Assembly (NCBI RefSeq): GCF_030028105.1
Contig: NC_092376.1
Coordinates: forward strand, 144,768,230-144,832,229
From: Mobula birostris
Taxonomy: Eukaryota
DNA length: 64,000 nt
Direction of reading: 5' to 3'
Part shown: in pieces, positions 50,900 through 64,000 of the stretch
How the letters are laid out: the number at the start of each line of letters is the position of its first letter
Numbering within the stretch: position 1 is the stretch's first letter
The notes under the pieces: model-generated
What the model was told of the DNA's origin: nothing
Seen by the model: only the letters and a program-made list of their open reading frames with translations
The model's database searches: none
Position numbers and translations under genes: made by a program

Positions 50900-52480
50900 A
50901 ACATGCAAGCGATCTTCAGGAGGGTGAACCCACAAAAAACATTCAGCCCAGATGGGGTACCTGACCAAGTACTAAAGACCTGTGCCGATCAACTGGCTGG
51001 AGTGTTCCCTGACCAGTCTGAGGTACCCACCTGCTTCAAACAGGCTTCAGTTGATACTGGTGCTAAGAAGAACATGGTAACCTGGCTCAATAAGTATCGT
51101 CCAGAAGCGCTTACATCCACAATGATGAAATGTTTGAAAGGTTGGTGATGAACCATATCAACTCCTGCCTGGCAAGTGACCTCGATCCACTCCAATTTGC
51201 CTACTGAAGCAACAGGACCACAGCAGATGCCATCTCACTGGCTTGTCACTCAGCCTGGGAAGATCTGGACAGCAAAGGTGCTTACATCAGGATGCTCTTT
51301 ATCAACTACAGTTGGACATTCAATGCCATCACCCCCTCAAAACTAATGAATATGCTTCAAGACCTTGGCCTCAATACCTCCTTGTGCAATTGGGTCCCCA
51401 GTTTTCTCACTTGCAGACCCCAGTCAGATCAGATTGGCAACATCATCTCCTTAACAATCACCATCAGCACAGGGAAACCACAAGGCTGTGTGCTTACCAC
51501 CCCCCCCCCCAACTCTACTCGCTTTACAATTATGACTATGGTTAAGCACAGCTCCAATGCCAGACTCAAATTTGCTGAGAATGTCACTGCCATAGCCCAA
51601 GTCAAAGGTGGTGATGAATAAGCATATAGGAGGAAGACTGGAAATCTGGCAGAGTGGTGCCATAACAATAACCTCTTATTCAGTATCAGCAAGACTGAGG
51701 AGCTGACTATTATCTACAGCAGGAGGAAACCAAAGGGTCCTGAGCCAGTCATCATCAGAGGATCTCAGCAACTTTAAACTTCTCTGTGTTATTATTCTGG
51801 ATGACCTGTCCGGGGCCCAGCACACAAGTGCAAAGATGAAGAAAGCTCAGCAGCGCCTCTACTTCCTTAGGAGTCTGCAGAGGTCCAGCACAACATCGAA
51901 ATCTTTGACAAACTTCTACAGACGTGTAGTGGAGAGCGTATTGCCTCGCTGCGTCACAGCCTGGTATGGAAAGATCAATGCTCTTGAATGGAAAGTCCGA
52001 CGAAAAGTAGTGAATACAGCCCAGTTCATCGTGGGTAAAACCCTCCCACCACTGAGCACACCTACATGGAGTGCTGTTGCAGGAAAGCAGCATCGATCAT
52101 CAGGGACCCCACCACCCAGGTCATGCCCTCTTCTCACTGCCACCATCAAGCAGGTGGTACTACAGCATCAGGTTCAGGAACGGTTATTACCCTTCAACCA
52201 CCAGGCTCCTGAACCAAAGAAGATGTTCCCACAACCCACGGACTCACTTTCAGAGACACTCCATCTCATGATCTTGATATTCATTGCTTATTTATTAATA
52301 TTAATTCTTTCCTTGTATTTGCGCAGTTTGTCATCTTGGATGCCCAAGTTGGTGCAGTCTTTTGTTGATTCTATTATGGTTGTTATTCTATTATAGATTA
52401 ATTGAGTATGCCCACAAGAAAACAAATATGGTGACATATATGTAGTTTGGTAATAAATTTACTTTGAGTTTCAACTTTGA
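50900..52480 (+). mobile_element. Rex1/Babar LINE RT fragment
   Basis: PDGVP..VLKTCADQLAGVF, YRP.ALTS..MKC, STGKPQGCVL and KKAQQRLYFLR; tail aataaatttactttgagtttcaactttga. Confidence 0.85.
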
Positions 52481-58699: not shown

Positions 58700-59667
58700 C
58701 CTACCTACGTACAAACCACAGCATGCCAGTGGATTGGTCAGGCAAGTTGGATTCCCACAGGGAGAAGACTGGACACCACATTGTGTCTGTGTTAAATGAG
58801 GGAGGGTTCCCAGACAAGAAAGGGAACCAAAGGGGTGCCCTTTGGCTGCTGGCAGCCACTGTAAAACACCAGCATGAGACAATTGTGCAGAGAGAGCAGG
58901 AGATAGCTAGTCTAAAGAATGGGGCGGAGGTGCTGGATCAGTGCTGTGCCAGCATGGGAGAAGCTGCCTGGTGAGCACAGACCCAGGCCAAAGAGCTAGA
59001 AGACAAGGGTACAAAGCTGTCCCAGATATGATGACCATCATTCAGGACATAGGGGGCTCCATTCTCCTAAGTCCAGAGTCATAGGACTAGTTTAGCTTTA
59101 TGTAGGAGCTCGGCAGTACATCTTTTGCTGCCTCCCCCCGGGGCATGTACACAGTCCCACACGGTGCCATAGCATGGTAGCTTGAGAGTTACAGGGGATA
59201 CATGTAGACCATAGCAACTCCATATCCCACCATATAGATGATGCCCTGTTAGAGATGCCCTCACAGGACATAGTGAGGAAGACAATGGACGAAGCAGTTA
59301 CCTCTCTGAGGGAGTGGAGTTGGTTTATCAAATCTGATAAGATCCGGGGTTCCAGTCAGAATGTTCTATTCCTGGGAATGCAGTGGTATTCTGCGCCATG
59401 GAAGTTAGAGGAGCTGATAAGGCCAAACACGAAAATTTGAATGTTGCGGTCCTCATCTCCAAGGAGGAGACACAATGCTTTGTAGGGTTCCTTGGTATTA
59501 GTGCCAACATATCATCCCTTATACCTGGCCTGCCATTAAATAGACCACTTTCCAATGGAGTCCCAAACAGCAAACGGCCTTTGACACTGCCAAACAGTGG
59601 AACACATCCTTCTATTAGCCCCTAGAGAGACTGGGGTACCATTGGAGCTACAGTTTTCAGCTGCCCC
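58700..59667 (+). pseudogene. Class III (ERV-L/ERV-S-like) gag N-terminus and RT remnant
   Basis: GALWLLAATVK plus coiled coil; then QYIFCCLPPGHVHSPTRCHSMV, HHIDDALL, WFIKSDKIRGSSQNVLFLGMQW, KEETQCFVGFLG and FQWSPKQQTAF. These are collinear with ERV-L RT motifs ([48 protein letters not shown]). Confidence 0.85.
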
Positions 59668-60220
59668 TATTGGAAAATGCATTGTATTTTCTCTGTATTA
59701 CAGTATTTATTCAAATGTACACATTGTATTTTCTATATTTACTATGTAACCACTGCTAGCTGAATAGAAGGTATTCACTATGTAGCCATGACTTTTGACA
59801 TGATCACTATTAATTCATGAAGAGAACTAGAATGAAACCAAGTAGAAAGATAATGGTGGCGAGTAAGGGGATGAAATATGTGGCAGTATGTCAACACAAG
59901 ACTAATTAAGAAATAACTGTGGTTAGGGATGAGAGGACATATGGCCTAAAATGTAAACTAGGAGATAATTAAGTTGGGGAGTAAAACAATAGTGGAAAGT
60001 CGAGAGCGGATATATTGATGATATGTAATCACAGGCTGACTGGATATGATAATGTAGCTAAGATAGGAAAATGCTATAAAAACTGCTGTATACAAGCCTC
60101 GATGAGCAGTCAGCTACTAGCTTTCTGATTGTCTCAGCTTTGATTTGCAAATTAAAGTTTAAAACCTTGACGAGTTTTCTGTGTCTCCTTGTCGTTTGTG
60201 AGAAACGAGAAACCACGACA
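59668..60220 (+). mobile_element. 5' LTR of a class I-like ERV
   Basis: TATAAAA at 60075, ATTAAA at 60151, ends ...CGACA just before the PBS. The 5' boundary is inferred from where the class III pol remnant stops. Confidence 0.75.
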
Positions 60221-60224
60221 AAAT

Positions 60225-60242
60225 TGGCATCACGAACAGGAT
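60225..60242 (+). promoter_or_regulatory. Primer-binding site, tRNA-Ser(CGA)-like
   Basis: TGGCATCACGAACAGGAT, 17/18 to the complement of a vertebrate tRNA-Ser(CGA) 3' end as I recall it (TGGCGTCACGAACAGGAT). Confidence 0.75.
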
Positions 60243-60571
60243 CGGATAGAGACCCGCGAGGAAGGGAACGGCAGATTGGGACGCTTCCCGGTCCCTCGAG
60301 GACCCTCATGGGGCTAACAGAATTAAGAGTGCACCCAAAGAAAAAAGATGAGCACTTTTTGCGATAATTCGGACTAAGAATTCTGTTGGTTTTGGGGGGT
60401 CTCAGGGAATCAGAAGTGTGAAGCCACTACCAAAGGGTCTCTCCGATCCAAACAATCTGGCAGAATCGGGGATAAAAGGAGGCTCAGAGGATTAATCAAG
60501 AGCAAGGCAGTGGGGGTAAGTACGAATAAAGTAATAATAAGTAAGAAAATTCCACGTGGTGTTGGTAAGTC

Positions 60572-60793
60572 CCTGTGGATACCACTTCGCACGAAACGAA
60601 GGTCTGAACAGGCAGGGAAAGAGAATTAAAAATCCTTGTGAATACCGCCTTAAGAAGTGTAAGGGTCTGCATAGGCGAGGTGCAAATTAAAACTCCTCGT
60701 GAATACCGCCTTAAGAAGTGTAAGGGTCTGCATAGGCGAGGTGTAAAAGGAAAAGGTTCTGTGGATACCACCCTAAATAGGGGTCTGCACGGG
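60572..60793 (+). ncRNA. Array of four covarying stem-loops in the ERV leader (candidate packaging/dimerisation signal)
   Basis: Units at 60572, 60635, 60696 and 60758 share GTG-RAT-ACC-RC-[stem-loop]-GGT-CTG with compensatory apical stems. Confidence 0.7.
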
Positions 60794-60957
60794 CAGAACG
60801 TAATAAGAGATAAAGATAGTTTAATAAATAATTCAGACGCTGGTGAGATAAACCATAAGGCTAGGCATAGAAATAGAGTTAGAGAAATAATATTATTAAA
60901 TAGGCAAGTCGTGAGATTCTAAAAATACCTTAAAAGAAAAAGGAAAAAGAGAACAAC

Positions 60958-63039
60958 ATGACAGAGAAAGGAACGGCAGTAGAAATATTGAGCAGAAAAT
61001 TCCCGGTGTGTCAAGTTAAGATCGCGGAAATTTCAGAAAAATGGGAAAAAAGAACTAAAAAACTGGTCACGGAATGGCCAAGAGAAGGAATGTTTGATGT
61101 AAGCTTATGTGAAGAAATGGAAGTGTTAAAACTCTTTAGGATGGAGGGAGAAAGGTTAAGAAAGACGGGAAATATATTAATAGCAAGTGAAAAAGACACT
61201 GAGAAACGAAAGCAGCAGTCTGATAAAGAAAAGGAAAAGCATAACAGGGAGCCGGCTTCGGCTCTATACCCAGACCTGAAAGACGTAGAAAAACCTCCTT
61301 CCTATTATGAGAAAGAAACCCTTAAGCAGTGTCCGATGATAACAGGAAGAGTGGATCTAAATGGAGAAATTAAAGTCTGGGATACCGAGGAGGAAAGAAA
61401 GAATCACGAAAAGGAGCAGGAGGAACTACGGAAAGTAATAGAAGAAGAGAGGGCAAAGATAGAACAGGAGAAAAGGGAAAGAGAAGAGGAGATCAAAGGG
61501 TTACAGGAATTAAAAGCGAAAAGGGATGAAGAGAAATCTTTGTTATATGGGCACGGAACTGAACAGGCCAGAGCAGAAGACTTGTCAGGAGAGCAAGGGT
61601 TAAGTAGCGAAAGAGAGGGTGCAGGAGAGTGTAGGCAGAGGATAGGAGATAGGAGCCTTGAAGGGGAAAAAGAGAGAGTGAAAAGGCAGATACTAGAAAC
61701 AGAGGGAGAGATTAGGAAATTACAGCGGAGACTGAATTTCCAACTGGAGTTTGAGGATTTCACATGGGCCCAAGCAAATGCTAGCTCAAGGCAGAAAGGA
61801 AGAACTCCACGAGGAGGCCAAGGGAGAAAGGAAACCCCGGAAAGAATCATGTGGCAGCCAGTGAAAACGTGCTCAGAAACAGATGGTGAGTCAGGCGAGG
61901 AGGAGAGTCAGGAAATGTGGGAAAGGAAAGGAAGAATGATGCCGTTGTTAGTAAAAGGATTGGGACAAGTACAGTATATTCCTTGGGGATCCCAGGACCT
62001 GGAAGGGCTGAAAAACACCCTGCCCAGCCTACATGAGGGTGCAGGGAAGTGGATTAGGGCCTTTGAGGAAGAAACCACGGGACGAATGTTGGCTATGGGA
62101 GATTTGAAGGCGCTGCTGATAAGGCTGATGGGAACCTCCGGACTGCGAGAGCTGATGGAAGCGGCTGGCATACAGAATGCGGACAGCACACTGATTGACG
62201 GGGCCAGATTTGACACAGTGAGGCAGAGGGTATGGGGGGCCCTCAGGGAGCTCTATTCTCCCAAAATGGACCCCAAAGCCACGAAAAGGGATCCACTGGG
62301 AGACACTGAAAATCCAGCAGCCTATATAGAAAATCAGTTGAAAAGGTGGAGACTGGAAACTGAACAAGAGGTGGAAGGCAACCCATTCATGACCTGGATG
62401 TTCGAAATATCGTTTTGGATGCAATGCCTCCCCAAGTTAAGTCTAAACTTGAGGAAGTGGTTGGACTGATGTCAATGACCCCACAGGAATTCAGGGACCA
62501 TGTAGTCCATGCGGTCGAAAAATATTGAAAAGACAAACGAAAGTTGACTGAGCAGCAAGAAGAAGTGCAAAGAAAGCTGATACAAATGCAGCTTGGAGAA
62601 CTTAAAAAGAAGGAAAAAGAAAAAGACAAGAAGATGCAGCCAGCAATGACCGATTTAAGCACAGCCACTGAAATGAACGAAATGACAGAGCCCAGAAAAC
62701 CCCATGCCAATAAAAAAAGTCTTTGGGGGTGCTTTTCCACAAATGCCCTATCAGGGACAGGATAAATTTAAACAGCAGCACAGACAGGACTGGAAATCCC
62801 AAGGAGTGGGGTAGAGAGGTTATGGGCAGGAAGGACCAGTAAGGAAACAAGGGGAAAAAGAGATATGGAGACTGTGCTGGGGATGTAACCAGCCAGGACA
62901 CATGAGAAGGGACTGCCCACGTAAACCATGGGCCGTCACGTACCAGCGGGAACCAATGAGATGGGAACCACAGTCTGGTCAAGGACCAGTCCCCGCAGGG
63001 CAGGCAGAACCCAGAAGGCCTATGGACCACGGAAGATAG
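60958..63039 (+). pseudogene. gag: ERV gag (MA, charged linker, CA, CCHC nucleocapsid), disrupted
   Basis: 503-aa ORF with WPREGMFD (MA-like) and YIPWGSQDL (CA start-like). A frameshift near 62403, a premature TGA near 62526, and zinc knuckle CWGCNQPGHMRRDC at 62875-62916. Confidence 0.85.
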
Positions 63040-64000
63040 CCTACTGGTAGCTCCCACCCCTTTACTGACTATCCTGATCTCAGAAGCACATGGGATGGAT
63101 CATTGTGCAAGGGGGTAAGTAATAAGGAAAATAAAAAAAGGATGGATTTTGGTCGCCTTATTTACAGGCTTCAGTAGACCATGTGTTGTCACAGTGCGAG
63201 GTATGTGTGCAGAATAATAATCGGAAAGGAATTACAACCCCAATAGGTCATATACCCGTACCTGAAGGGCCATTTAAACACCTAGTGATTGACTATGTAG
63301 ACATGATAAAAACAGTAAGAGGGAAAAGATACATGTTGATGGTAATCGACGGATTCAGCAGATGGGTAGAGGCAGTACCCTCGAAAGATCAAGGGGCAGG
63401 AACAGTGGTGAAATTCCTGACAACTGAAGTGATCCCAAGGTTTGGGATACCGACAGAAATTAGCTCAGACAATGGTTCAGCTTTCATCCAAAAAGTGGTC
63501 AAGTTAGTACTGCAAGCACTGAGAATAAAGCAGAGATTTGGATGTGTGTATCACCCTCAGTCGCAGGGTATGGTGGAAAGAATTAACGGGACCATCAAAA
63601 CCAAACTAAACAAAATCCGTGCAGATACTAAACTCAACTGGGTCGATGCACTACTGTTAGCATTAATGAGTTACCGCATGCAGACTAATCGGATGACGTG
63701 TCTAACACCGCATGAAATGCTAACCGGAAGGCCCATGCCAGTGCCCCGGTGGAGAGGACCATATAAAGGGCCTAGTTTGGAACAATTGGAATTGGAATTA
63801 AAACAATACATGCGGCAATTAACTATGATACATAAGTCTATTTATGTACAGGAAAAACAGAAAGAGCCAGAGATTGATCAAGGGGAAGGACCAATCAAGC
63901 CAGGCGATCGGGTCTACGTGCAAGCGTTTCGAAGAAAGTGGAAGGAACCCAGAAGGGAAGGGCCCTTTACAGTAACCAAAGCATCACCCACCGCAGTTTA
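63008..64000 (+). pseudogene. pol: ERV integrase (class I type), running off the window
   Basis: HHCC (AHGMDH...CEVC) with a stop and frameshift, then an open frame: IDYVD, WVEAVP, EVIPRFGIP, SSDNG, YHPQSQGMVERINGTIK, EGPFTV. Confidence 0.9.

Follow-up and report, generated by a model that had tools for sequence, protein, structure and literature searches.

The known constitutive transport elements (CTEs) of MPMV and ASLV are located close to the 3′ end. Packaging and export signals have been mapped for mammalian and avian retroviruses. In MLV the packaging signal is described as lying between the splice donor and gag (PMC3185771), and UCUG and related G-ending sites are reported as targets of the single-knuckle MLV nucleocapsid protein, NC (PMC7599994). 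FIV Gag also uses UCUG, according to PMC13736810, and unpaired purines are described as Gag sites in other retroviruses (PMC7599994; PMC13736810). The repeats of RSV flank src (PMC7551171).

The window, a stretch of 64,000 nt, contains a provirus with a tandem array of RNA hairpins in its leader. The array shares with the MoMuLV psi signal a class I virus, a single-knuckle NC and several hairpins in a row, and it occupies the same interval between splice donor and gag, as seen from splice joints and the gag start. The module is a real, selected RNA element that is apparently undescribed. On balance we lean towards regarding it as a new retroviral motif, in which a modular internal loop, present three to seven times, forms the core of a packaging or export signal in a class I lineage of cartilaginous fish. 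If this is correct, no earlier cis-element of the packaging or export kind would have been structurally defined for a fish retrovirus. The array would also be a natural avidity experiment, with a copy number that varies among replicated genomes and is never below three, and would show a class I virus building its genome-selection signal from one repeated loop, not from the distinct hairpins of MLV.

The provirus and its host

The retroviral features of the window copy are as follows.

59668..60220, + strand, 5′ LTR (start approximate; from copy L031 compared with itself)
60225..60242, + strand, primer binding site, matching tRNA-Ser(CGA) with one mismatch in the window copy
60958..63020, + strand, gag (frameshifted in the window copy; end approximate)
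62875..62916, + strand, single CCHC zinc knuckle of the nucleocapsid (Pfam zf-CCHC in copy L036)
63135..64000, + strand, integrase part of pol (Pfam rve and MLVIN_C)

Self-comparison of L031 gave an LTR pair 93% identical, with the 3′ LTR outside the window, beyond its end. Most of pro-pol is deleted 3′ of gag in the window copy. In the longer copy L036, gag (with a single CCHC knuckle) is accompanied by RT, RNase H, integrase and env; as judged by Pfam, its integrase C-terminal domain is of the MLV type and its env of the TLV type. The closest solved structure to the RT is that of MLV (E = 4e-55). By these sequence comparisons the provirus is a class I element. The host is likely to be a cartilaginous fish, specifically a ray, because the best Gag matches are from rays and bamboo shark.

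The gag loci that were fetched fall into two lineages, A and B, whose capsid DNA is ∼85% alike. The lineage A primer site matches a tRNA-Ser(CGA) gene in the same genome. The lineage B site is different, with first and last letters in common with that of A.

Layout and fold of the array

The units of the array, with the structural elements of unit 1, are listed below.

60570..60618, + strand, unit 1, type T1 (covariance model)
60570-60576 with 60612-60618, + strand, outer stem of unit 1 (RNAalifold)
60577-60584 and 60602-60611, + strand, loop strands of unit 1 (RNAalifold)
60585-60589 with 60597-60601, + strand, apical stem of unit 1 (RNAalifold)
60633..60681, + strand, unit 2, type T2 (covariance model)
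60694..60742, + strand, unit 3, type T2, a tandem copy of unit 2 (covariance model)
60756..60799, + strand, unit 4, type T3, with a short apical stem-loop (covariance model)

A preliminary description of this DNA had placed four stem-loop units with periods of 63, 61 and 62 nt upstream of gag, with purine-rich linkers and with units 2 and 3 as a recent duplicate. The four units are present at those positions, units 2 and 3 are duplicates with 95% identity, the composition of the linkers is indeed purine-rich, and the gag ATG is at 60958, ∼160 nt from the last unit. Each unit is ∼50 nt long. A covariance model built from 14 natural units matched only the four units in the window, at 62-71 bits (the window units match by construction), and the next best match scored 13.8 bits. 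Genome-wide, the core pattern gave 444 matches, compared with 5 for a reversed control.

Two covarying stems around a conserved loop form each unit. RNAalifold predicts an 8 × 10-nt internal loop between the outer stem and an apical stem of 5 bp, the latter variable in sequence, and 9 of the 12 pairs show two-sided, compensated changes. The outer stem has 7 bp, reading TCCCTG/CAGGGA in unit 1, CCTCG/CGAGG in unit 3 and GTTCTG/CAGAAC in unit 4, plus one inner pair; that of unit 2 has one wobble. Five of the seven pairs changed on both sides among the 14 natural units, and at the innermost position 312 of 317 units have U-G, U-A or C-G. Despite the expansions, both arms of the stem were of matching type in 317 of the 318 classifiable units (334 in total). 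In isolated natural units the outer stem has a pair probability of 0.7-1.0.

The covariation claimed earlier for the apical stem was thus borne out, and other parts of the proposed fold have been revised. The 6-bp basal stem of the preliminary description is in the wrong register: none of its six pairs changed on both sides, 82% of cells were paired, and its pair probability in isolated units was 0.00-0.04. The 3′ arm of the outer stem lies ∼6 nt farther out. Because the covarying basal stem sits farther out, the 3 × 3 loop of that proposal becomes part of the conserved 8 × 10 loop. An ACC/GGT stem had been called invariant, but G replaces its T in 22 of the 92 units of the first type and in 8 of the 131 of the middle type, and the stem is absent from the RNAalifold prediction; ACC/GGU can pair within the loop, replacing the first apical pair. 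A possible isolated pair within the loop would be G-C in T1 and T3 and A-U in T2; in 9 of the 131 T2 units it is A-C and so broken.

The folding energy of the array was unremarkable relative to shuffled sequences (z = −1.0), as were single window units (z from +0.04 to −1.9). The argument for structure is accordingly one from covariation, not from energy. A rough binomial estimate for 9 of 10 compensated columns gave 3e-5 to 1e-2, depending on the assumed rate, for a sample of three unit types and two lineages from one genome. In its sequence context the outer stem had a predicted probability anywhere from 0.00 to 0.99, because the cores can pair across units. A switch between two basal registers was considered and rejected, since the inner register lacks compensatory changes and its pairing is disrupted in lineage B. 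Comparison by eye with the cores of the K-turn, hammerhead, twister and hairpin ribozyme gave no consistent fit.

Conservation and copy number

Lineages A and B were compared using three-unit leaders, 26 from A and 32 from B. Four of 122 structured (stem and core) columns differ between the lineages, compared with 17 of 47 linker and apical-loop columns and 104 of 539 elsewhere in the leader; the column labels were set after the B copies had been seen, so that P values for this comparison are nominal. The stem columns, 2 of 68 of which differ, are as conserved as the loop. Variation is highest in the apical loops, where 8 of 20 columns differ.

The four units of the window copy are one state of an array that has three to seven units, and four is not a fixed number. 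Among 96 distinct arrays, 62 had three units, 25 had four, seven had five and two had seven. None of the 96 had fewer than three; the arrays were found via two anchors, so that loss of an end unit would escape this count. The basic array is an ordered set of the three distinct types, and in expanded arrays it is almost always the middle type that is repeated. In one B array (L151:3341-3580) the first unit is duplicated along with the donor-like site before it. An old triplication may be the origin of the three types, whose stems would then have drifted by compensated steps while selection held the loop sequence.

The array was found at 100 of 108 gag-bearing loci, some of which were fetched twice. 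Three of the eight exceptions are one locus truncated on its 5′ side, and two come from a proviral cluster (G000:C11:147.1-147.7 Mb, L328-L330). In this cluster an array-removing leader deletion is common to the two copies compared. These copies also share flanks, and so they are segmental duplicates; cluster copies with an intact LTR are 97% identical over 9.1 kb for the two.

Proviruses with shared pol or env deletions have retained the array in all cases. Two groups with internal deletions (L032, L033, L034, L043 and L042; L035, L037, L040, L046 and L047) have shared junctions at independent sites, and judging from these junctions they are likely to be non-autonomous lineages. None of 55 pairs of flanks of deleted proviruses match, indicating unrelated insertion sites. 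This pattern would fit mobilisation in trans. The deleted lineages retain the entire leader and most of gag, so the array is not singled out.

Position of the array on viral RNA

The splice sites around the array are the following.

60345..60353, + strand, first splice donor, cut at 60347/60348 (joint in run X1, within a 2-nt uncertainty)
60513..60521, + strand, second splice donor, cut at 60515/60516 (GT..AG joint in run X2)
60562..60570, + strand, third donor-like site, cut at 60564/60565, abutting unit 1 (sequence conservation)
63840..63852, + strand, splice acceptor, cut at 63851/63852, closing the intron that holds the array (splice joints)

Splice joints came from contigs of four runs in two studies, probably of RNA; they show joints, not their level or strand. 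A GT..AG joint runs from 60515 to 63852, and another joint fits 60347/60348 with the same acceptor. The first donor is degenerate in the window copy and has GT in 48 of the 53 A leaders and 31 of the 34 from B. The second reads GGTAAGT in 48 of 53 A leaders. The preliminary description had taken 60564/60565 as the donor. This site is conserved (GGTAAGT in 44 of the 53 A leaders and 28 of the 34 from B) and does abut unit 1, but it is the third of three: the joints listed fit the two upstream donors, and none of those listed uses the third site. The array is intronic in each splice joint listed, and therefore only unspliced RNA carries it. Taken with the covariation and with the conservation between A and B, the splice joints support the earlier proposal of a selected, multivalent RNA module on the unspliced RNA of a fish endogenous retrovirus.

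A second GT..AG joint removes most of env. It involves a 231-nt internal exon with a conserved donor (L031:5582-5812, window 63852 onward) that splices to an acceptor near the env end, 7410 onward (run X1). One frame of this exon is basic and mostly stop-free in many B copies. A Rev-like protein from doubly spliced RNA was considered and rejected for want of a conserved start codon: of 53 A leaders, one has the upstream ATG, and the copies share no ATG in exon 2.

Searches beyond the family

Comparison of the leader with Rfam at E values up to 10 matched no described family, giving only two chance-level matches to unrelated families. The unit model detected no extra unit elsewhere in whole proviruses. 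Three Gag searches of the same genome were made for other families; every locus fetched belonged to lineage A or B. Variants of the core pattern in this genome were family copies or unrelated repeats, with 13 places checked scoring at most 17 bits; the matches inspected were among the 100 listed of 444. In viral contigs, Gag searches gave no confirmed locus. The core pattern occurred there at at least 120 loci, 100 of which were rescored, with a best score of 20 bits; these matches were set aside as chance, the outer stem being absent from the three alignments inspected. In the sequences searched, the module is thus seen in one virus family only.

Metagenomes yielded two distant Gag-related loci, L082 and L083, both without the motif. 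Their leaders have repeats of their own, spaced 61-63 nt (L082:450-590, L083:1110-1252), with the words CCATTTT and ACGCAGTTA. We take these words to resemble DNA factor sites.

Among the openly accessible papers searched, none describes the motif or a packaging or export signal of a fish retrovirus.

Comparison with described elements and possible functions

The array resembles the MoMuLV psi signal further in that most units carry UCUG, a candidate NC site. However, psi is composed of DIS-2, SL-C, SL-D and UCUG sites, whereas three homologous units here repeat one internal loop. The UCUG of psi is in a linker; that of the array is in the internal loop and varies to GCUG. Psi has GACG tetraloops, whereas GACG occurs here only at 60280 and 60836, outside the units. 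Of palindromes, one 6-mer is kept in T2 of A and B, with none common to both lineages in T1 or T3. In MMTV and MPMV the Gag sites are described as single-stranded purines, and in FIV the site is UCUG; the leader here likewise has unpaired purine-rich loops and linkers, but the described sites occur singly and in most cases 5′ of the donor (PMC13736810). Furthermore, the purine-rich parts of the array are variable and it is the mixed-sequence internal loop that is conserved. With the CTE of MPMV/SRV and NXF1 intron 10 the array has in common a repeated conserved internal loop within a stem, a conserved donor-like site beside the element, and a simple retrovirus in which no Rev-like protein was found. 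The CTE differs in being one long stem, compared with separate hairpins in the 5′ leader. A response element of the Rev/Rex/Rec type is set apart by the lack here of a conserved start for a viral basic regulatory protein. By the features compared, the array would work like a retroviral leader signal, yet is a member of neither the gammaretroviral core signals nor the CTEs.

The conserved loop would be read by something, several loops at a time. We put at about even the chances that the array is the Gag-binding core of a packaging signal that selects unspliced genomes. The zinc knuckle of the nucleocapsid is the presumed reader: the single knuckle of Gag would bind unpaired guanosines of the 3′ loop strand, with a proposed target of GUCUG and then a second G five bases on. 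Several consecutive loops would nucleate Gag assembly, and spliced env RNA, having no array, would be passed over. TCTG is denser in the leader (9.5 per kb) than in gag (1.4 per kb), and 4 of the 7 leader sites are the units themselves. The first U of UCUG is kept in 70 of 92 T1, 121 of 131 T2 and 94 of 94 T3 units. Its replacement, to give GCUG, in 22 of 92 T1 and 8 of 131 T2 units counts against the packaging reading. The Trp of the knuckle follows the first Cys and there is none after the His, a placement unlike that of the pocket residues described for MLV NC (PMC7599994). Because of this difference, the preference of MLV NC need not carry over.

Position and conservation of the array are fitted equally well by a constitutive export element, whose loops would bind a host export factor (NXF1 or an adaptor) and which may double as a packaging signal; overall we regard this reading as possible but doubtful. 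The MPMV CTE also has repeated stems with conserved internal loops, two in number (PMC7551171; PMC4338338), and its loop is adjoined by a conserved, apparently unused 5′ splice site, as the array is by the third donor; non-homologous CTE-like elements are described in other retroviruses (PMC4338338). The Rev-like frame has no conserved initiator, and therefore a host route would be needed. Against this, the NXF1 CTE has a 6 × 6 inner loop (PMC4338338), conserved in sequence from fish to mammals, compared with 8 × 10 nt here. The unit model gave no match over 100 kb at the host NXF1 gene (best score 11.3 bits), where short motifs did not locate the host CTE. Also, the array is in the 5′ leader, and the known CTEs of MPMV and ASLV are not. 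Control of splicing or of gag translation, with units that damp the upstream donors or recruit initiation factors, is unlikely. The outer stem of unit 1 does start at +6 of the conserved third donor, the gag ATG follows ∼160 nt past the array end, and structure near the MLV donor is reported to attenuate splicing (PMC3185771). However, the donors seen in use are 55 and 220 nt farther 5′, a single donor does not need as many as three to seven equivalent loops, and expansions shift units away from the donors.

The array is very unlikely to be a DNA-level repeat of factor sites, or a set of neutral tandem repeats with stems arising from templated mutation, even though its folding energy is no better than that of shuffles and the leaders of the Gag-related contigs L082 and L083 have other repeats of 61-63 nt that the model does not match. 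Both stems covary in a fixed geometry across three unit types, and between A and B the stem columns are as conserved as the loop, which the linkers are not. Ligand binding by a tertiary-folded loop, or self-cleavage, seems extremely improbable. A large sequence-conserved loop between free stems is a signature of such motifs, and the possible isolated loop pair would suit one, but that pair is lost in some T2 units, no Rfam ribozyme or aptamer matched at E values up to 10, and cleavage in the leader would destroy the genome. Dimerisation, which had been offered among the roles of the array, finds little in its favour: we consider it highly improbable that hairpins of two genomes kiss or become intermolecular duplexes. 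The palindrome CTTAAG is common to the middle units of A and B, and dimerisation and packaging signals are described as overlapping in MLV (PMC13736810). However, the apical loops are the least conserved part and are purine-rich, T1 has a palindrome in B only and T3 none, and the units have no GACG loops. The module is directly testable by probing and binding, because it is ∼50 nt long, has a covariation-backed fold and comes in natural copy-number variants.

Other sequences in the provirus and window

The interval between protease and RT in pol of the longer copy (L036:4570-5136), which is deleted in the window copy, encodes a segment with two HxT-like motifs and no Pfam match. Its best look-alikes in Atlas score 0.96-0.97, and 11-31% of their members carry the tRNA-ligase cyclic phosphodiesterase family; the segment is likely to be a 2H phosphoesterase domain within Pol. 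Elsewhere in the window, 51180-52400 contains a fragment of another retroelement, with a non-LTR RT-like frame near 51208-52396, and an RT-like stretch was seen by eye at 59000-59600, immediately 5′ of the LTR.
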